A stretch of 64,000 bases of DNA, taken from the NCBI GenBank assembly GCA_902629075.1, contig CACOPK010000005.1:2104-66103 (forward strand). The letters are read 5' to 3'. This document shows positions 32,854 to 59,392 of this stretch, piece by piece. Under the pieces are notes generated by a model, which saw nothing but the letters and a program-made list of their open reading frames with translations, searched no databases and was not told the DNA's origin. Made by a program: the position numbers and the translations under genes. The first letter of the stretch is position 1, and every line of letters starts with the position of its first letter. The DNA comes from an uncultured Pelagibacteraceae bacterium. Its GTDB lineage: Bacteria > Pseudomonadota > Alphaproteobacteria > Pelagibacterales > Pelagibacteraceae.

Positions 32854-33408
32854 ATGAAAAAAGTTAGTTTTACAGAAATGAAACACGGTACAAAGGAAGA
32901 TTATCTATTCTTAGATAAACATGAGAGAAAATATGCTGGAGAGACAGCCGATAGAATTATTAAATTTATGTCTGGACTTACTGAAACATTAGAAGGTTAC
33001 CAAGTTTCTAGACTTGAACACTCGTTACAAAGTGCAACAAAGGCCTTTAAAAATGGTGAGAGCGAGGAAATGGTCGTCGCTGCATTACTGCATGATATTG
33101 GTGATGAATTAGCTCCAATGAATCATTCTGAATATGCGGCAGCAATTTTAAAGCCTTATGTGAGTGAAAAAACACACTGGATAGTAAAAATGCACGGATT
33201 ATTCCAAACTTTTTATTATGTTCATCATCTTGGAGGGAATAGATATAAAAGAGAAGAGTACAAAGATCATAAATATTATCAAGCTACTGTAGATTTTTGT
33301 GAAAATTATGATCAAGGATGTTTTGATCCTAATTATAAATCATTGCCACTTGAACACTTTGCTCCAATGGTAAAAAGGATTTTTTCAAGAAAACCTTACT
33401 CTACCTAA
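32854..33408 (+). CDS. HD-domain protein, PhnZ/TmpB-like diiron family
   Basis: LEHSLQSAT, AALLHDIGD, NH, MH and YD give an H..HD..H..H..D ligand set. Confidence 0.7.
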   Translation: MKKVSFTEMKHGTKEDYLFLDKHERKYAGETADRIIKFMSGLTETLEGYQVSRLEHSLQSATKAFKNGESEEMVVAALLHDIGDELAPMNHSEYAAAILKPYVSEKTHWIVKMHGLFQTFYYVHHLGGNRYKREEYKDHKYYQATVDFCENYDQGCFDPNYKSLPLEHFAPMVKRIFSRKPYST

Positions 33409-34472
33409 GCCTTATTTCTATAATCTTTTATATGTTTTGGAATTCGTTTATTATTTCCAAACATATAATGATTTTCCATATTTTCTCTATATTTGCTAGC
33501 AGGAACTGTTAAACCAACTGACTCAGCAGTTTCTCTAATTAGCATAGGGTTTGCTCCGCAACAAACACCTAAATAATTTATTCCTATATTATAAGCTTCT
33601 TTTGCAAATTGCCCTATTTCATATCTGCTACATTGCATTGGGTCTAAAGCTGTTGGAAATGTAGTTTCATGAGGAGTATGGCAAGTACATCCATTGTTAT
33701 CCGGTAGATTAAAAAAAGTAGGATGCTCATCAGTTGTTCTATAAGTGATAGGTAATCCAGCCATATGACATTTTAATTCTTTTCTAATTTCTTTAAGATA
33801 AGGAAGCATAGTATTAGGGCCTCTATGACAATTCATTCCTACTACGTCCCCTCCCTTTTGTTCCAACTCCTTGCAGGTATCAAGAATAGAAACTCCATCT
33901 CTCATAATATTCTCACCATACGGAGCGATAGTAATAACTGATGGAAGTCCAGTTTCTTTCATCACTTTTAAAGCTGTATAGGCTTCTTCTGCGTAATAAA
34001 AAGTTTCACCAATCAAAATATCTGCTTTCTCATCTACTGCCCAGCCAACCATTTCACGAAACATTTTTTCTACTTCTAATTGGGATTTCTTGTTGTCCTG
34101 ACTCCAAATATTTGAATTTGAAATGTTTCCAGCCATCAAGTTTTGCTCATCTCCCATTGGGCTAACTGCAACTTTTTTTGCAATTTGTAAAGCTGCTCTA
34201 TTAAGAGGCTCTAAAAGTTCCTCTTTACCTATAACACGCATTTTTTCTCTATGACCATTATAAGTAAAAGCTTGAACAATATCAGATCCAGCATGCTGAA
34301 AATCTCTGTGCAAATTTAGCAAAGCCTCAGGATTTTCTAATGAAACCATAGGAACAAACTCACCAGAGGACATATATCCTCTTTTTTCTATTTCAAAAAG
34401 AAATCCTTCTGCACAAATTACTGGACCTTGGTTTAATCTTTCGATTAAATCTCTTTTTTTATCTTTAGTCAT
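33405..34472 (-). CDS. bhmT: Betaine-homocysteine S-methyltransferase
   Basis: AEGFLFE, HRDF.HAGSD, Zn ligands GMNC and GVCCG; preceded by SAM riboswitches. Confidence 0.88.
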   Translation of the reverse strand: MTKDKKRDLIERLNQGPVICAEGFLFEIEKRGYMSSGEFVPMVSLENPEALLNLHRDFQHAGSDIVQAFTYNGHREKMRVIGKEELLEPLNRAALQIAKKVAVSPMGDEQNLMAGNISNSNIWSQDNKKSQLEVEKMFREMVGWAVDEKADILIGETFYYAEEAYTALKVMKETGLPSVITIAPYGENIMRDGVSILDTCKELEQKGGDVVGMNCHRGPNTMLPYLKEIRKELKCHMAGLPITYRTTDEHPTFFNLPDNNGCTCHTPHETTFPTALDPMQCSRYEIGQFAKEAYNIGINYLGVCCGANPMLIRETAESVGLTVPASKYRENMENHYMFGNNKRIPKHIKDYRNKA

Positions 34473-34500: not shown

Positions 34501-34540
34501 GCTCATAGATTAAATGAGGGCAAATAATATGAAACCCCTT

Positions 34541-34597
34541 CTCCTTTTTAGTGCTTTAGCTTAATGCTGGGTGCACAATATGGTTCAAATCACCCGG
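34541..34597 (-). ncRNA. SAM-V riboswitch aptamer
   Basis: GGGUGAUUUGAACCAUAUUGUGCACCC-AGCAUUAAGCU-AAAGCACUAAAAAGGAG matches the SAM-V pattern; upstream of a methionine-synthesis gene. Confidence 0.88.
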
Positions 34598-34615
34598 TTT
34601 CTTTTCTATTTTGGT

Positions 34616-41163: not shown

Positions 41164-41874
41164 ATGACTAAAGCTAAGAAAATTAAAAATAAAAATAACT
41201 CGAGTAATTCTATATTTTCCTCAAAAAATTTAAGGATTGTTTTAAATAATTATAAAAAAAATAAAGAACAAAAAAAAATTAAAGAAATAAAATTGAAAAA
41301 ACTTGCAGAGAGCAGCCAAATTATAAAAGATAGAAAAGAATTGAAATTATTTGAAGAAAAACTAATTAAAGAAAGTAATAAATTAAAAATTAAAGAAGAA
41401 GAGCTCAAATTAAAAGAAAAAGAATTAAAAATTAAAGAAGAAAATATAAAAATAGAAAATAAAAGGTTAATTAAAAAGGATGAAGATTTAGGTCAAATTG
41501 ACAAAGATTTAAGATTAAAAGAGAAAGAACAAAAACTAAAAAGTGATGAACAATTTAGGAAAGATATTGATTTAAAAGCTCGTGAAGAAGATCAAATTAA
41601 AAAAGAACTTAAGGAAAAAAGGAAAAAAGAAAAATTTTTGAAAGAAATGCTAATACAAGAGGAAGAGGAAAGAAGAATAGAAGCTATGAAATTAAAAGAA
41701 TGGGAAGAACAGTTTGATAGAGAGCAACAAATGAAAGAACGAAAAGAAATTCTTAAAGATGAGCGTCTAAAACAAAAAGAATTAAATCGCTTAAATACAA
41801 AAGATGAAAATTTAGGAAATGAATTAAGCACAAAACTTGAAAGTTTTGATGTGGACAAATCCTCAGAGCATTAA
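41164..41874 (+). CDS. Lys/Glu-rich coiled-coil hypothetical protein
   Basis: Long ORF with heptad repeats KLKIKEE/ELKLKEK/ELKIKEE; ATG at 41164 preferred. Confidence 0.7.
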   Translation: MTKAKKIKNKNNSSNSIFSSKNLRIVLNNYKKNKEQKKIKEIKLKKLAESSQIIKDRKELKLFEEKLIKESNKLKIKEEELKLKEKELKIKEENIKIENKRLIKKDEDLGQIDKDLRLKEKEQKLKSDEQFRKDIDLKAREEDQIKKELKEKRKKEKFLKEMLIQEEEERRIEAMKLKEWEEQFDREQQMKERKEILKDERLKQKELNRLNTKDENLGNELSTKLESFDVDKSSEH

Positions 41875-41878
41875 ATTT

Positions 41879-42106
41879 TTGAATCACGAAAACGCAAGCA
41901 AACTATGGAAAATTATTCAGGAGGCTGGCGATTATTTGCTTGGACAATTACCTGATCATCCAAATCATCCTAAAGGAAGAAATCCTTATGCGCATGTTGC
42001 GATTTGTATTAAAAATAAATTTAATGCGAGTTATAAAGATATTCCTGACAATAAATACAATGATGTTTTAGAATTTATAGATTTTTTGAAAAAAAATCCA
42101 AGTTAA
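41879..42106 (+). CDS. Small hypothetical protein with an ORF6C-like C-terminus
   Basis: LPDHPNHPKGRNPYAHVA..KFNASYKDIPD..VLEFI; TTG start 4 nt after the upstream stop is inferred. Confidence 0.65.
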   Translation: MNHENASKLWKIIQEAGDYLLGQLPDHPNHPKGRNPYAHVAICIKNKFNASYKDIPDNKYNDVLEFIDFLKKNPS

Positions 42107-42128
42107 TTTTAAAATTTTAATTTTAGTT

Positions 42129-42188
42129 TTACTGAAGGTAAGTGGTATATGCCCACGCAACCACTGCTAAAACAATTACTACTTCCAT
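42129..42188 (-). CDS. 19-aa single-TM microprotein MEVVIVLAVVAWAYTTYLQ (not in the ORF track)
   Basis: AAGGAG-ATATA-ATG ribosome-binding site, hydrophobic peptide, GC-richer than its flanks, 28 nt after the amidinotransferase stop. Confidence 0.6.
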   Translation of the reverse strand: MEVVIVLAVVAWAYTTYLQ

Positions 42189-42216
42189 TATATCTCCTTA
42201 TGATTCTATATTTATA

Positions 42217-43329
42217 TCATTGTTTAGGAAAATAATCATCTAATTTTCCATCTCTAAATACATCTGCTGTACAACAATGAAGACCTCCTCCAAAAGCGTA
42301 AGCATCTCTTAATTCAACAGGGATAACTTCCATACCTAATTTATCTAATTGCTCAGCCTGATAAATTTCACTTTTTTCAACACAAACAGTTTTAGGATCT
42401 AAAACTAAAACATTCATTGAAAGCCATACTGAAGAATAACAAAGTGGCGGTGGAGAATTATGTGCTGGTTGAGCTGAGTCTATAATTTTCCATCCATTGT
42501 CCTCAAATAATTTTCTTTGTTCTTGTGGAAGTCTTCTCTGAGGATTATTAATTATCAAACCTTCTTTAATTGGAGTAAAAGTAGCGTCAATATGAATAGG
42601 ATAGGGATCTCCTGGAAAATTAACTGCATGAACTCTATGATCTTTATAATGTCTTCTTATCCAATCAATACCTTTTAAGTTAGTAGTAAATCCATGTTGT
42701 ATAATTAAATCTTTTCCAAATCTCAAAATATCAGCTGCATCAAATAAAGGTTCTTCCTCTGTAGTTACAAAAAATTTTTTTTCTGTCCACTCTAATCTTT
42801 TTTGAACTCCAATCTTATCTGACAAATAATCTTTTCTATAATCATCATCAGTTAATCTTGGTTTTGGGGCTGATTCATGCCTCATATTAGGATCTTCATT
42901 ATAATATTTTTTTAACAAAGGCCGATAACATAAATATTCGAACCATCTGCAACGATAACTCATTGTGGCTTCTAAAATTTCATTTCCAACGGTCAAAAGA
43001 ACATCTCTAGGAGGCATACATCCAAACATTGTTTCTGTCGTCCAATCAGGCGTTGAAGTAGGTTGATTAAAATTTATCGGTGTTGGTCGATCTACTTTAA
43101 TTCCACGTTTTTCTAACATTGATGAAAAATTATCTAAAAGTTGATTTGCTTTATCGACTGTATCTTTTGTCCTTGGACCAAACGTGCCTCTCATATCAGA
43201 TTCTTCTGGGACTTTTGCATCCAATGCTGGCTCAGGAGCTGGAATACAAGTGCCATCAGCCCTTCCTACGATAACATGTTTTAATGGGTCCCATTCATTC
43301 CAGCTGTTTACTACTGTCTTTTTAGTCAT
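42217..43329 (-). CDS. Glycine amidinotransferase-like enzyme (AGAT/StrB1 family)
   Basis: NSWNEWDPL, PRD, EPLFDAAD, HIDAT, WLSMN, GGGLHC give the Asp-His-Cys triad. Confidence 0.9.
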   Translation of the reverse strand: MTKKTVVNSWNEWDPLKHVIVGRADGTCIPAPEPALDAKVPEESDMRGTFGPRTKDTVDKANQLLDNFSSMLEKRGIKVDRPTPINFNQPTSTPDWTTETMFGCMPPRDVLLTVGNEILEATMSYRCRWFEYLCYRPLLKKYYNEDPNMRHESAPKPRLTDDDYRKDYLSDKIGVQKRLEWTEKKFFVTTEEEPLFDAADILRFGKDLIIQHGFTTNLKGIDWIRRHYKDHRVHAVNFPGDPYPIHIDATFTPIKEGLIINNPQRRLPQEQRKLFEDNGWKIIDSAQPAHNSPPPLCYSSVWLSMNVLVLDPKTVCVEKSEIYQAEQLDKLGMEVIPVELRDAYAFGGGLHCCTADVFRDGKLDDYFPKQ

Positions 43330-44547
43330 TTAATTTTTAATTATATTTTTTTTAGGTCCTAATGGAAATTTACTTATATTTTCTGCGCTTTTCTCTTTTA
43401 TTACCATTATATCGTGCTCTCTATATCCGCCTGCCCCAGGTTTGCCCTCTGGTATCATTATCATAGGCTCCATTGATATCACCATATTTTTTTCTAGCAC
43501 AGTGTCTATATCTTCTCTTAACTCTAATCCAGATTCTCTTCCATAAAAATGTGAAAGCATTCCAAAAGAGTGTCCATATCCGAAAGTTCTGTATTGAAGA
43601 TATCCAAGTTGGGCAAATAAATCATTAAGTTCTTCACATATTTGAGAACACTTAACACCAGGCTTGATCAATTCTAAACCTCTTTGATGAACTTTAACGT
43701 TTGCTTCCCAGGCTTTTAATGATTCGTCATCAACTTCTTCAACAAATAAAGTTCTTTCAAGAGCCGTATAGTATCCGGATATCATAGGAAAAGTATTTAA
43801 AGATAAAATATCCCCTCTTCTTAAAATTCTATTTGTTTTTGGATTGTGCGCACCATCAGTGTTTATTCCTGATTGAAACCATACCCAAGTATCCATATAT
43901 TCTGCGTCTGGATAAGTATTTGCAATTTCTCGTTCCATTTTATCCCTTCCTGCAATTGCAATTTCTAGTTCGGTCTGTCCAGGCATTATATATTTTATCA
44001 TTTCTTCAGCTCCTAAATCAGCAATTCTTGCGCCATTTTTAATAATCTCTATCTCCTCGTCACTTTTGATCATTCGAAGTTTCATTAAATGATTTGCAAT
44101 GTTTCTAAATACAGCATCACTAAATATAACGTTTAATTTCTCTTTAATTTCAACAGTTATATGATCATTTTCAATTCCTATTGTTTTTGGAGGTTCTTTC
44201 CTGCCTATTATTGAAACTATTGCCTTTAAAAAATTGTCTTTTTTCCAATCAGTATAAATAATATTCTCGCAATGTGATCTTCTCCAAGGTTGGCTTGCAT
44301 CAATGTTTGCAGAGATTGTTACTATTTTTTCTTGTGTTACAACACATCCATAAGGTCGACCAAAAGAACAATAAATGAAACCTGTGTAATAAGCTACATT
44401 ATGCATCGAGGTCAGTATTGTCATATCAATACCTTGATTTAACATTACTTTTCTAAATTTTGATAATCTGTTTTGATATTCTTTATCCGTGAATGGTAAT
44501 TTTACTTTATTTCCATTTTTTAATTCAAAAAAATCTGGTCTTTCCAT
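43330..44547 (-). CDS. Creatinase (creatine amidinohydrolase)
   Basis: YCSFGRPY, MDTW.WFQSGINTDGAHNP, FPMI.GYYTALERTLF, YGHSFG.LSH.YGRE.GLELRED, GYREHD, as recalled for Pseudomonas creatinase. Confidence 0.93.
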   Translation of the reverse strand: MERPDFFELKNGNKVKLPFTDKEYQNRLSKFRKVMLNQGIDMTILTSMHNVAYYTGFIYCSFGRPYGCVVTQEKIVTISANIDASQPWRRSHCENIIYTDWKKDNFLKAIVSIIGRKEPPKTIGIENDHITVEIKEKLNVIFSDAVFRNIANHLMKLRMIKSDEEIEIIKNGARIADLGAEEMIKYIMPGQTELEIAIAGRDKMEREIANTYPDAEYMDTWVWFQSGINTDGAHNPKTNRILRRGDILSLNTFPMISGYYTALERTLFVEEVDDESLKAWEANVKVHQRGLELIKPGVKCSQICEELNDLFAQLGYLQYRTFGYGHSFGMLSHFYGRESGLELREDIDTVLEKNMVISMEPMIMIPEGKPGAGGYREHDIMVIKEKSAENISKFPLGPKKNIIKN

Positions 44548-44553
44548 TTTGTT

Positions 44554-45459
44554 TTAATTAAGTCCAATGAATCTTCTATTAGTTCGAATTATCAAACTAT
44601 AGTATACGATTGAAAGAAATATTAAAAATCCTCCAATTATAGTACTTTGTGATGGAATTTCGTTAATACCTAAAATTGGTATCCAAACCCAAAAAATACC
44701 TCCAATCACTTCTGTTAAAGATAAAAGAGTTAACTCAGCTGCTGGTATGTGCTTAGATCCAATAGAGTATAAAATCAATCCTAAACAAACAAGTGTACCA
44801 TGCGTTGCGAATAAAGCATGATTTTTTCCAGATGATAAAAAAGTTAAATCGTTAATTGTTAACATAAAAGCAGAGACTAAAGCACAAAACAATCCAGCAA
44901 CTGCGACTGTAGTAAATTTTGGTGTATCTTTTTTCCATCTTAATGTAACTGAAAAAACTGAAAAACCTATTGAAGAAATAATACCAAAAATGAATCCTAA
45001 AATAGTATTTTTTCCAGTATTATCAATTGCCATAACTAAAATTCCAATAGCTGCGATAGCAATAGCAACCCATACATTTATAGAAATTTCCTCTTTTAGA
45101 AACATAAAACCAAGCAACGCTGTTATAAAAGGCATAGCTGCAAGACAAAGAAGAGTTACAGCCGCAGAGGTATTAGTTATTGAGTAAATAAAAGTGATCA
45201 TTGCAATTCCGAGTCCTACACCTCCTACTAAACCTGAAATACCAATTTTTTTATAATTTTCAAAAAATTCATTTCCTTCTTCTAAATATAAAAATAAATT
45301 CAAAATCGTAAATATTACTATTCCTCGAGTAAATAAATATTGCCATGGAACTTGTTGAGCGTTATCAATATGTCTAACAACATAGGGTCCGAATGACCAT
45401 AAAAGACCAGCTATCAAAACAACAGGGATAGCAACCTTTGCATCTTTAATATCAAGCAT
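44554..45459 (-). CDS. DMT/EamA family transporter
   Basis: About 10 TM segments; ends 6 nt before the creatinase start. Confidence 0.87.
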   Translation of the reverse strand: MLDIKDAKVAIPVVLIAGLLWSFGPYVVRHIDNAQQVPWQYLFTRGIVIFTILNLFLYLEEGNEFFENYKKIGISGLVGGVGLGIAMITFIYSITNTSAAVTLLCLAAMPFITALLGFMFLKEEISINVWVAIAIAAIGILVMAIDNTGKNTILGFIFGIISSIGFSVFSVTLRWKKDTPKFTTVAVAGLFCALVSAFMLTINDLTFLSSGKNHALFATHGTLVCLGLILYSIGSKHIPAAELTLLSLTEVIGGIFWVWIPILGINEIPSQSTIIGGFLIFLSIVYYSLIIRTNRRFIGLN

Positions 45460-45510
45460 AACAATTTCTATTATTTATTAATTTTTTTAACAACAAAATT
45501 AATTTTTAGT

Positions 45511-46752
45511 TTATAAGAAATTTACACCAAAAGTTGTATGACAGTCTATGATATCCCCTTTTTTAAAAGTACTTTTACCATTTTTCAACTCCCCCCATAC
45601 ATTTGATGCTGCTAATGGTTTTATTTTGTAAGACTCTTGACCCTTAAAAATTCTAAATTCCAAAGATCCTTTTTTTGATACTTGAAGATCCCCTTTGATA
45701 AATCTCGTAAAATTTTTATTTTTATTGAATCCATTCATTAATTTTGCTCTTACAGATTCTGCACCTAAATATTTAATGGATTTAAAAATATAAGGTAAAA
45801 CAAAAAATCTAAAACATGCTGCAGTGGATACAGGATTGCCTGGCAAACCAAAAAAGGCTGTGTTGGTATTTAACTTAGAAAATAGAATTGGTTTACCAGG
45901 TCTGATTTTTGAATTTTTAAAATGAAATCTACTTTTATATTTATTGATTATATTTGGGACAAAGTCATATTTTCCTGCTGAAACTCCTCCGATAGTCATA
46001 ATTAAATCAATTTTATTTTTAATACTTTTTTTAAGTTCTTTATCAAATTGCTGTTCATCGTTATCTCTTAAAATTTTTTTTTCAATTATATCAATCGGTA
46101 AAATTTTTGAGAAAGTTTCAATGTATTTTCCATTTGAGTTTCGAACTTGCCAAGGAGAAATTTTTTTTTTATTGGTAATTTCATTTCCTGTTGGAAAAAA
46201 AATTACTTTTACTCTCTTTTTCACTTTAATTTTAGAAATGCCAAGTGTTTTTAAAACTAAAATATCTGAAGATTTTATTAAATCTCCTTCTTTTAAAATA
46301 ATATGCCCTCTTCTAAAATCACTACCTTTAAATCTTATATGATTAAATTTTTTAATTCTTTTATCTATTAAAAGATACTTTTCTTTATTTTGTATAATTA
46401 TGTTTGATTGTTCATAAGGGATAATGGTATCAAATGGTTTATTTATTATTGTACCTGTCATCACTTCTATACAGGAATTTTTTTTGATTTTTTTAATACT
46501 TGGATTATCACCTGCTGCAAAAGTTTTTAATATTTTAAACTTAATCTCATTTTTTTTATTTGCTTTAATAGTTTCTTTAGAATTTAAAGCAAAACCATCT
46601 AGAGCAGTATTGTTAGTTAATGGATAATTTAATTTACTATAAATATTTTCAGAACATATTCTATACAATGCATTCTTTAACAAGATTTTCTCTGATTTTA
46701 TTTTAAGCCTAGATTTGTAAAGTATATTTAAAGCTTTGTTGTAAGAAATCAT
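45511..46752 (-). CDS. moeA: Molybdopterin molybdotransferase
   Basis: ALDGFA, VMTG, TGNE, GGVSAG, RPGKP, GLPGNPVS. Confidence 0.88.
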   Translation of the reverse strand: MISYNKALNILYKSRLKIKSEKILLKNALYRICSENIYSKLNYPLTNNTALDGFALNSKETIKANKKNEIKFKILKTFAAGDNPSIKKIKKNSCIEVMTGTIINKPFDTIIPYEQSNIIIQNKEKYLLIDKRIKKFNHIRFKGSDFRRGHIILKEGDLIKSSDILVLKTLGISKIKVKKRVKVIFFPTGNEITNKKKISPWQVRNSNGKYIETFSKILPIDIIEKKILRDNDEQQFDKELKKSIKNKIDLIMTIGGVSAGKYDFVPNIINKYKSRFHFKNSKIRPGKPILFSKLNTNTAFFGLPGNPVSTAACFRFFVLPYIFKSIKYLGAESVRAKLMNGFNKNKNFTRFIKGDLQVSKKGSLEFRIFKGQESYKIKPLAASNVWGELKNGKSTFKKGDIIDCHTTFGVNFL

Positions 46753-46843
46753 TTTAAATTTTTTATTTTTTCATTGATTAAATATTGCGCTATTTTAAAA
46801 TAAATATAAAACAATTATAATTTTTTTTCAAAAAAATATTTTG

Positions 46844-47251
46844 ATGGATCTACAAATAATCAATATTGCTGCTAATACAAAAAACGATAAAAAAATTAAA
46901 AATTTTACTCATAAAGCAAAATACAAAAATAGCTTATGTGGTGATCAAATAGAAATTCGTTTAATTGTGAAGAAAAATAAAATTTTTGATATAGGTTATC
47001 AAAGTCAGGCCTGCATTTATTGCCAAGCTTCTGCGAGTATTTTATCTAGATTATCGATGAATAAAAATTTAATAAACATTAATAAGCTTATAAATGAAGT
47101 TTTAGAGTATTTTAATCGTAAGAATCATTTTTTGTCTAAAGATACAAAAAGGCTCAAAAATATTTTAAATAAGGAAAATCATTCAAGAAAAAATTGCATT
47201 TTATTACCTTTCAAAGCACTAAAAAAAGCATTAAGAGCAAGCTATGAATAG
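46844..47251 (+). CDS. IscU/NifU-N-like Fe-S scaffold or sulfur-acceptor protein
   Basis: NSLCGD, ACIYCQASAS, RKNCILLP. Confidence 0.78.
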   Translation: MDLQIINIAANTKNDKKIKNFTHKAKYKNSLCGDQIEIRLIVKKNKIFDIGYQSQACIYCQASASILSRLSMNKNLININKLINEVLEYFNRKNHFLSKDTKRLKNILNKENHSRKNCILLPFKALKKALRASYE

Positions 47252-57744: not shown

Positions 57745-58124
57745 TACTGACTACTTTCTTTCGCAAACTTATCATATTCATCTTTATTCATTAAAGTATC
57801 TAGCTCTTTAATATCTTTAATTTTTAATTTAAAAAACCATGCTTCTCCTTCAGGATCAGCATTTATCTTAGAGGGATCCTCTACTATTGCTTGATTAGCA
57901 TCAATTACTTCGCCACTTATCGGAGTATAAACATCGCTTGCAGCTTTTGTTGACTCTACAACTCCAGCTGTACCATCTTTCTCTACAATCGAACCTTTTT
58001 CTGGTAACTCAGCAAAGACGATATCGCCTAACATCTCTGTTGCATGTTTTGTAATTCCTATAGTAGCTATATCTCCATCAAGCTTTAACCATTCGTGCTC
58101 TTTTGAATATTTTACATCAGACAT
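57744..58124 (-). CDS. gcvH: Glycine cleavage system H protein
   Basis: HEW, LGDIVF, lipoyl motif VESTKAASD. Confidence 0.98.
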
Positions 58125-59220
58125 TTAATTCTCCTTTGGCATAGTTTTTTTTGTAAAATGGTAAATTACATACATTTGCAGGTATTTTTTTTCCTCTTAC
58201 CTCTAAAAATAATCTTGTATTTAAATTTGAATACTGTTTGTGAACATAGCCCATCGCTATTGAATGATCAACACTTGGACCAAAAGTACCACTCGTAATT
58301 TTTCCAATTTCTTTATCATCATTGCTAAAAATTTTTGTATTTCCTCTAGCTATAACTCTATTCTCTGGCTTTATTCCTACTCTAATTTTTTCTACACCTG
58401 ATTGGATTTGTTTTTTAATAATTTCTGATCCAGGATAGTCTGTATCAATTCTATTTTTGGAAATCGCCCATTTGAGATTTGCTTCTATAGGAGTAGTGTT
58501 CTTATCAATATCATTGCCATAAAGACACAATCCTGCTTCCATTCTAAGAGTATCTCTAGCGCCTAATCCAATCATTTTAGATCCATTACTAAGCATTTCC
58601 TCAACAAATTTTTCTGCATAATTATTTTTAATAGAAATTTCGAAACCATCTTCACCCGTATACCCAGATCTTGTAATAAATATAGTAATATCTGAAAATT
58701 TAAAATTTCCTCCGTTCATAAATTTTAATTTACTTACTCCTTCTACTTTTCTTTCTAAAATATTTTTCGCCTCTGGTCCTTGTAGAGCAATTAATGAAAG
58801 GTCTTCCTTTAATTGTAAATCATATTTATTATTTAATTTTTTCTTAATTATTCTTAAGTCATCCTCTTTACATGCAGCATTAAGTATTATTAAATAACCT
58901 TCTGAAATTTTAGTTATTATTAAATCATCGTAAATACATGCATTCTCATCCATTAGAAAAGAATATTTGCTTTGATTTAGATTTAATTTTTTTAAGTCTA
59001 TTGGGAAAATATTTTCAAGATCTTTGGTTAGATTTTCTTTGCCGTAAATAAAAAGTTGCCCCATGTGAGATACGTCAAAAATTCCACAATTAGATCTCGT
59101 AAATTTGTGTTCTTGGATAATTCCATCTTTATACTGAATCGGCATTTCATAGCCAGCAAACTCTACAAGTTTAGCGTTATGTTTTTTATGAAGATTATAT
59201 AAAGATGTTTTTTTTTTCAT
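58117..59220 (-). CDS. gcvT: Glycine cleavage system aminomethyltransferase T
   Basis: [30 protein letters not shown]; T-H-P order. Confidence 0.97.
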
Positions 59221-59298: not shown

Positions 59299-59307
59299 TT
59301 AATATGC

Positions 59308-59377
59308 GCGGTCCTTTTGCCTGAGAGATTCCGGGGTGGTTGCTCCTTCGGCTCTACATTGAAGTAGTCTCTTCCGC
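59308..59377 (-). ncRNA. Glycine riboswitch aptamer 1
   Basis: GCGGAAGAGAC..GCCGAAGGAGCAA..AAUCUCUCAGGCAAAAGGACCGC. Confidence 0.93.
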
Positions 59378-59383
59378 AGGCTT

Positions 59384-59392
59384 AATATAGCA
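59384..59392 (-). promoter_or_regulatory. Putative extended -10 promoter of the gcv leader
   Basis: TG-C-TATATT placed so that a typical start site would fall at the first G of aptamer 1 P1 (~59377). Confidence 0.45.

Follow-up and report, generated by a model that had tools for sequence, protein, structure and literature searches.

The DNA analyzed here (the window) is a 64,000-nt stretch of a contig from an uncultured Pelagibacteraceae bacterium, and it contains an operon encoding a permease, a creatinase and an amidinotransferase. The permease belongs to the EamA group of drug/metabolite transporters (DMT), and the amidinotransferase to the family of arginine:glycine amidinotransferase (AGAT). 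In this SAR11 (Pelagibacterales) genome, DMT, creatinase and AGAT form a genuine operon of three genes; the DMT-AGAT pair is its conserved backbone within the genus, and the creatinase is an accessory insert. The enzymes are of known families, and what is uncharacterized is the "DPYPIH" clade of the amidinotransferase and the physiological role. We tentatively favor a catabolic reading, in which the block would be a glycine-supplying module built on the DMT-AGAT pair, with the creatinase inserted and AGAT running in reverse.

Organization of the operon

The host genome has a size of 0.97 Mb and is 78% complete, and its relatives are Pelagibacteraceae / Candidatus Pelagibacter. The G+C content of the window ranges from 21 to 34% per 2-kb segment, mostly 25–30%. 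The three genes of the operon are all located on the minus strand:

44554–45459, minus strand: EamA/DMT permease, 301 aa, the first gene of the operon (PF00892)
43330–44547, minus strand: creatinase, 405 aa (PF01321 and PF00557), the accessory gene between DMT and AGAT
42217–43329, minus strand: AGAT-family amidinotransferase, 370 aa, "DPYPIH" clade, whose start abuts the creatinase stop

In the list of open reading frames (ORFs), the gap between DMT and creatinase is 6 nt, that between creatinase and AGAT is 0 nt, and a micro-ORF follows AGAT after 28 nt. An earlier note on this DNA described four co-oriented genes with these gaps; the positions, co-orientation and gaps are exact, whereas the micro-ORF is no member of the operon. 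With EamA (PF00892), for which the cut-off is 28.2, the permease scores 66.5 bits. In addition, TIGR00950, a family of carboxylate/amino acid/amine transporters, aligns with residues 34–284 of the permease at a score below its cut-off.

The creatinase

The 405-aa protein is composed of a Creatinase_N domain (PF01321, residues 27–160, 53.6 bits) and a Peptidase_M24 domain (PF00557, residues 168–385, 118.4 bits). It matches the solved creatinases over the full length, with E values of 4e-155 for 1CHM (520 bits), 2e-144 for 7YTO and 1e-141 for 1KP0. Matches to other enzymes are far weaker, the best prolidases reaching E values of ~1e-25 to 8e-25 and the ectoine hydrolase DoeA ~1e-12 to 2e-12. The full-length matches to creatinases over prolidases agree with the identification made in the earlier note.

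The motifs GAHNP, YYTALERT, SMEPM, YGRE and CSFGRPY of 1CHM are all identical in the window protein. From the Pseudomonas putida structure, we take the histidine of GAHNP to be catalytic, and the glutamates of ALERT and SMEP together with the arginine of YGRE to bind the substrate; the phenylalanine and arginine of SFGRP presumably contribute to substrate binding from the partner subunit. The window protein therefore resembles P. putida creatinase (EC 3.5.3.3; 1CHM) in its full-length 520-bit match, in its two-domain architecture and at every catalytic or substrate-binding position checked, and differs in the insertion of its gene between a permease and an amidinotransferase gene. Judged from its sequence, the 405-aa protein is a true creatinase, predicted to convert creatine and water to sarcosine and urea.

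The amidinotransferase

The 370-aa protein aligns over its full length with human AGAT (1JDW/1JDX) at an E value of ~1e-83 (6e-84 for 1JDX), and also matches the solved relatives HsvA (5WPI, 2e-63), SxtG (6U1R, 5e-62) and StrB1 (1BWD, 4e-51). In the central block, its identity to human AGAT is ~48%, as counted by hand from the alignment. In human numbering, AGAT uses the triad Cys407-His303-Asp254 and binds the guanidino group through Asp170 and Asp305. The motifs DAAD, HIDAT and GGGLHC are all found in the window protein, and the alignments with 1JDW and with the family show that it keeps D170, D254, H303, D305, R322, S355 and C407. Among these residues, Arg322 and Ser355 presumably hold the carboxylate of the amino acid, a role that we take from the human structure papers. 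Both are kept in the window protein and in the seven other aligned members of its clade, one of the seven having a Tyr at position 354. The alignment with 1JDW/1JDX upholds the earlier assignment to the AGAT family with an intact Asp-His-Cys triad, and the protein is predicted to be a catalytically intact amidinotransferase that keeps the amino-acid-binding residues.

The 300-flap of the window protein has the same length as that of human AGAT, and reads D-P-Y-P-I in place of D-P-N-P-M, corresponding to the substitutions N300 to Y and M302 to I. The earlier note took these residues as a hint of an altered acceptor pocket, a suggestion that is not borne out. The flap DPYPIHID is found in 117 of 121 close homologues and is thus near-constant in the clade, and CyrA and AoaA, which have Phe at 300 and Ser at 302, are proven Arg:Gly enzymes (PMC4887976, PMC3684758). 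Because the flap is clade-wide and CyrA/AoaA differ at the same two positions, DPYPI is no sign of an altered acceptor. Moreover, flap swaps in AmtA left the specificity unchanged, and the sequence of the flap predicts specificity poorly (PMC4887976).

Vertebrate AGAT/GATM (EC 2.1.4.1; 1JDW/1JDX) is the best solved match, and shares the Cys-His-Asp triad, the guanidino-binding Asp pair, Arg322, Ser355 and the five-residue 300-flap with the window enzyme. The latter differs in having DPYPI instead of DPNPM, in being bacterial and lacking a mitochondrial presequence, in its location within an operon with a permease (and a creatinase) and no nearby GAMT, and in belonging to a separate, tight clade. 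CyrA and AoaA of cylindrospermopsin synthesis are likewise bacterial long-flap enzymes, with an aromatic residue at 300 (Phe245 in CyrA, Tyr here) and a residue other than Met at 302; they are proven as stringent Arg:Gly enzymes (PMC4887976, PMC3684758). In contrast to the window gene, CyrA is encoded in a toxin cluster of polyketide synthase (PKS) and nonribosomal peptide synthetase (NRPS) genes, and the CyrA-type representative (flap DIFPSH) falls into a different clade.

In a tree of representatives at 50% identity, the DPYPIH clade is tight and lies within the long-flap group. The same group holds representatives with CyrA-like and AGAT-like flaps, and the DPYPIH clade is sister to neither. 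Naming the clades of the tree through their cluster members returned only "glycine amidinotransferase" or nothing. Close homologues with 75–91% identity occur in thousands in marine metagenomes, and include proteins of Rhodobacterales and Rhizobiales. NCBI records label close homologues (P0023, P0030, P0084, P0099 and others) as "serine/threonine protein kinase", an evident misannotation that hides the family.

The secondary-metabolite amidinotransferases CyrA, SxtG, StrB1, AmtA and HsvA are located in biosynthetic clusters. The window gene is not, and related loci add only a threonine aldolase. Among the flanking ORFs scanned (~39.8–49 kb), no PKS, NRPS or other secondary-metabolite gene is seen, which confirms that AGAT has no biosynthetic cluster nearby, as had been noted before. 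No methyltransferase is seen among the ORFs at ~39.8–49 kb around the operon, and no genome-wide search for GAMT was made.

Distribution and gene neighborhoods

Presence was counted in 61 Pelagibacterales genomes, and synteny was mapped for 20 loci. The amidinotransferase is found in 51 of the 61 genomes, including 19 of the 20 high-quality ones, and the creatinase in 14. The role of AGAT therefore cannot depend on the creatinase, and its presence in nearly all sampled SAR11, with or without creatinase, indicates that this role is general. In the synteny maps of the genus (g1), permease and amidinotransferase are adjacent whether or not a creatinase is present; at the 10 g1 loci inspected, the permease immediately precedes AGAT or the creatinase-AGAT pair, with one genome (G004) as the exception. 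When the creatinase occurs at the locus of the genus, it is always positioned between permease and amidinotransferase. In addition, the gene next to the amidinotransferase on its downstream side encodes an L-threonine aldolase (PF01212; 1V72, E 3e-107) in many genomes of the genus.

A metagenome scan with the creatinase, in which split alignments were resolved, gave 80 contigs with 79–94% identity. Where the flank is 300 nt or longer, AGAT directly follows the creatinase, in 66 of 66 contigs, with spacers of 0–27 nt; the gene directly before the creatinase is DMT in 74 of 74. The creatinase-AGAT pairing that the earlier note expected to find in related genomes is thus present wherever the flank suffices. 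The note's further suggestion, that the creatinase is a catabolic partner of AGAT, holds in part: the pairing and the tight operon support it, whereas the accessory nature of the creatinase (14 against 51 genomes) does not. In three of the 66 contigs (L078, L080 and L106), the amidinotransferase is split by a frameshift or ~13–38 residues short, owing to assembly error or occasional pseudogenization.

Outside the Pelagibacterales, 200 alphaproteobacterial genomes were sampled evenly, and the amidinotransferase is present in three of them, one copy being 83% identical. The gene is therefore patchily distributed and is no housekeeping gene of the Alphaproteobacteria.

Two further contexts are gene-rich. 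In G004 (L019, 4433–12513), the amidinotransferase gene is clustered with genes for BHMT-like, 801-aa DMGDH/sarcosine-dehydrogenase-like, methyltransferase, Rieske oxygenase, SET-domain and M24 proteins, and the group looks like a methylated-amine catabolic island. Its S-adenosylmethionine (SAM)-dependent methyltransferase lies 18 nt after AGAT. This protein was considered as a GAMT-like partner and rejected, being METTL27-like with no match to GAMT structures. In G351, a 1.6-Mb alphaproteobacterium (L063, 7283–15857), an amidinotransferase with 61% identity stands first in a compact series of genes on one strand. Behind it come, in order, an arylmalonate-decarboxylase-like (EutA-like) protein, a pyridoxal-phosphate (PLP) enzyme, an ornithine cyclodeaminase, a second PLP enzyme, an M20 peptidase, an M24 protein (DoeA/creatinase-like) and a proline-racemase-family protein. 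This series is similar to clusters for ectoine or hydroxyproline utilization, and is the only suggestive operon among the amidinotransferase contexts inspected outside SAR11.

A possible glycine-supplying role

According to the catabolic reading, creatine would be taken up, possibly via the DMT permease, and split by the creatinase into sarcosine and urea. The sarcosine would be converted to glycine by a sarcosine oxidase encoded elsewhere in the genome, and the urea would be discarded. The amidinotransferase would operate toward glycine, converting guanidinoacetate (or a similar guanidino acid) and ornithine into arginine and glycine. Both amidino nitrogens, which hydrolysis would release as urea, would thereby be kept as arginine. 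The creatinase would merely broaden the range of substrates in one sub-lineage. We infer the reverse direction of AGAT, as well as guanidinoacetate or taurocyamine as its substrate.

The gene content of five whole genomes, comprising the window genome and four relatives (G000, G013, G029, G004 and G037), is consistent with this scheme. The sarcosine oxidase SoxB is encoded in all five, and so are argG and ornithine carbamoyltransferase, which implies that ornithine is available. The window genome also has three arginase-family genes. A search of the five genomes for urease and urea carboxylase detected neither, despite the presence of creatinase and arginase-family genes, and these bacteria apparently excrete urea as an end product. 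The creatinase therefore probably supplies sarcosine and glycine and not urea nitrogen; its urea would be a dead end, and transamidination would retain the amidino nitrogen.

Catalysis by AGAT is freely reversible. SAR11 in culture depend on an outside supply of glycine, serine or their precursors, and this glycine requirement fits the reverse direction. The three independent contexts of the amidinotransferase connected with glycine, namely creatinase, threonine aldolase and DMGDH/BHMT, each of which yields glycine or its immediate precursor, also fit a glycine-supplying role and the reverse reaction.

Genes for the conversion of creatine to glycine in SAR11 have already been discussed (PMC3686209). 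The osmolyte-demethylation route of SAR11, which leads from glycine betaine or creatine through sarcosine to glycine (Sun et al. 2011, as given in PMC3686209), shares its end point with the window locus via creatinase and sarcosine oxidase. The amidinotransferase and the DMT permease are not part of that published scheme, as far as it is given there.

The presence of an AGAT-like enzyme without an assigned physiological role in almost every sampled SAR11 constitutes a gap in the metabolic map of this group. SAR11 is the most abundant bacterial group of the ocean and relies on external glycine or its precursors. If the salvage of guanidino acids were true, a new class of dissolved organic nitrogen would enter the SAR11 diet, and the enzyme would be a rare amidinotransferase serving catabolism instead of toxin or creatine synthesis. 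It would also explain how amidino nitrogen is retained in genomes where urease was not found.

A number of observations speak against the glycine-supplying role. EamA/DMT proteins are often exporters. In the sister family, a permease orthologue with 46–47% identity is present in 24 of 24 genomes and is unlinked to AGAT, and the permease of G004 is followed by a threonine aldolase only, apart from the amidinotransferase. With regard to the DMT transporter as a component of a salvage system, the EamA identity and the adjacency within the genus are thus retained, whereas the linkage to AGAT is lost in the sister family and in G004. The amidinotransferase of the sister family stands alone between an FAD monooxygenase and rodA-mrdA-mreBCD. 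In G039 and G297, which lie outside the genus and have both enzymes, AGAT and creatinase are unlinked, and in Rhodobacterales, Rhizobiales and other metagenome-assembled genomes the amidinotransferase is monocistronic with unrelated neighbors. The metagenome contigs represent one lineage, and so attest stable inheritance and not independent origins. In addition, genes are frequently gained and lost at the locus, with moeA, threonine aldolase, creatinase and micro-ORF all variable, and the adjacency may be partly opportunistic. The characterized members of the enzyme family all work in the forward direction, with arginine as the donor (PMC4887976, PMC3684758, PMC12371840), and the ornithine cyclodeaminase next to the 61%-identical homologue in G351 would suit that direction. 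The literature searched contains no report of guanidinoacetate in seawater, no assay of a DPYPIH-clade enzyme and no experimental paper on an AGAT from SAR11 or marine Alphaproteobacteria.

Part of this evidence would be accounted for by forward biosynthesis, which we regard as unlikely. Here, arginine would serve as the donor in the formation of guanidinoacetate or a different guanidino compound, for example an osmolyte, a molecule for storage or signaling, or a methylation precursor; DMT would export the product, and the creatinase would be unrelated or would recycle a related one. AGAT, CyrA/AoaA, AmtA, SxtG, HsvA and StrB1 all use an arginine donor (PMC4887976, PMC3684758, PMC12371840). 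The occurrence of AGAT without creatinase in most SAR11, the frequent export function of EamA/DMT members, the methyltransferase following AGAT in G004, and the G351 ornithine cyclodeaminase, which would consume the ornithine formed, are all compatible with such a role. However, a forward enzyme would spend glycine and arginine in a glycine-requiring, nitrogen-poor and genome-streamlined organism, and downstream biosynthetic genes are absent. The methyltransferase in G004 is METTL27-like and does not match GAMT structures, and all three variable neighbors (creatinase, threonine aldolase and DMGDH/BHMT) are catabolic and glycine-yielding.

Adjacency without a shared pathway is improbable to a similar degree. 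AGAT would then have its own role unrelated to creatine, and the creatinase would have landed at a permissive, often rearranged site downstream of a promoter and of a transporter with broad specificity. The restriction of the creatinase to 14 of the 61 genomes, its location elsewhere in G039 and G297, the unrelated AGAT neighbors in the sister family (rodA-mrdA-mreBCD and the FAD monooxygenase) and in other Alphaproteobacteria, and the gain and loss of moeA, threonine aldolase and the micro-ORF cassette would all be expected in this case. On the other hand, the creatinase is inserted exactly between two genes, with the 0–27-nt spacers seen in 66 of 66 contigs, an arrangement that would place its expression within the operon. 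Moreover, the substrate of creatinase is a guanidino acid and belongs to the chemical class of AGAT, and the other optional member of the locus is also glycine-yielding, which exceeds the coherence expected by chance.

A third explanation, which we hold to be very unlikely, is that the amidinotransferase acts as a creatine/sarcosine transamidinase that accepts N-methylated substrates (creatine + ornithine <-> sarcosine + arginine), so that amidino nitrogen would be conserved or creatine would be made. Isotope tracing in North Pacific communities revealed the conversion of sarcosine to creatine, with creatine formed from sarcosine rather than glycine and no known enzyme for this step (PMC9321204). 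The DPYPIH clade is abundant in marine metagenomes and adjoins enzymes that produce or consume sarcosine, and its flap carries Tyr/Ile for Asn/Met at the substrate lid (PMC4887976). Nevertheless, no family member is known to take sarcosine or creatine, and the acquisition of a creatinase would add little if AGAT handled creatine already. The flap is a poor predictor of specificity (PMC4887976), and the explanation is pure inference. That the SAR11 DPYPIH amidinotransferase could be the missing sarcosine-to-creatine enzyme, and in addition provide a nitrogen-conserving route for creatine in bacteria where urease was not found, is a long shot. The glycine-supplying role remains the reading that we tentatively prefer.

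The micro-ORF and its insertion

Two features are located downstream of the amidinotransferase:

42129–42188, minus strand: micro-ORF, 19 aa, hydrophobic, MEVVIVLAVVAWAYTTYLQ, with an AAGGAG Shine-Dalgarno sequence; no operon member
42107–42216, minus strand: ~107-nt insertion that contains the micro-ORF and separates the AGAT stop from that of a convergent 89-aa gene

The earlier note counted the microprotein as a fourth gene of the system, which the comparison with relatives contradicts. No micro-ORF is present downstream of AGAT in ~18 related genomic loci or in any of the 80 metagenome loci. Among the closest relatives, whether environmental or genomic, 0–3 nt separate the AGAT stop from the end of the convergent 89-aa gene (TTAACTTGGATTTT...), and the extra ~107 nt with Shine-Dalgarno sequence and ORF are found only in the window.

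Homologous ORFs of 18–19 codons (MEVVIV..AWWAWNQFM) with the identical AAGGAG Shine-Dalgarno sequence occur in five Pelagibacteraceae genomes; their loci are L036 (~1513–1572), L041 (~1513–1569), L052, L053, L054, L056 and L058. A tRNA-Ser(GGA) was detected at three of the loci, ~65 nt upstream of the ORF. The family consensus MEVVIV[LI][AG].A.WAWN.F.. is hydrophobic and Trp-rich, and the genes downstream are convergent. The window copy occupies a different genomic place from its homologues and has a divergent C-terminus. The micro-ORF is probably a member of a real small gene family, and in the window it is an unrelated inserted cassette outside the operon.

Two other interpretations of the micro-ORF were rejected. 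A Trp-rich leader peptide does not fit the convergent genes found downstream in other genomes. A remnant of a deleted threonine aldolase is contradicted by the lack of any similarity and by the nearest relatives, which have neither the aldolase nor the micro-ORF; no threonine aldolase was found in the window genome, which is 78% complete.

Flanking genes and regulatory elements

The operon is flanked by genes for a major facilitator superfamily (MFS) transporter, two small hypothetical proteins, MoeA, SufU, an HPP protein and an NAD-dependent formate dehydrogenase. The moeA gene (molybdopterin molybdotransferase; 45511–46752, minus strand) separates sufU from the permease gene in three genomes, namely that of the window, G013 and G024. 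It is missing at the corresponding place in the inspected genomes without creatinase, and is a further variable gene of the locus.

One candidate regulatory feature precedes the operon:

45488–45498, minus strand: TTTTGTTGT(A/T) motif, candidate promoter or operator, ~30–40 nt upstream of the DMT start

The motif occurs at an equal distance upstream of DMT in most g1 loci, whether the neighboring gene is moeA or a divergent sufU. Its conservation regardless of the upstream gene suggests that the operon has a promoter or operator of its own. A genome-wide regulon search with the motif gave mostly intragenic hits without any pattern. No riboswitch or other known RNA element was detected at 41800–47000, even at E values up to 1. 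A promoter scan found promoter-like sites no more often than in shuffled sequences, and a terminator scan found none.

The only riboswitches found in the window, two in number, are located elsewhere. A glycine riboswitch (RF00504, 60.8 bits; 59299–59386, minus strand) lies upstream of a 367-aa ORF (58117–59220, minus strand), which we take as gcvT-like from weak BLAST matches (23–26%) of DMGDH-like proteins; this riboswitch is in line with the glycine theme seen around it. A SAM-V riboswitch (RF01826, 75.2 bits; 34538–34604, minus strand) is positioned upstream of a 355-aa gene (33405–34472, minus strand), the product of which is 47% identical to the BHMT-like homocysteine S-methyltransferase encoded beside the DMGDH-like gene in G004.

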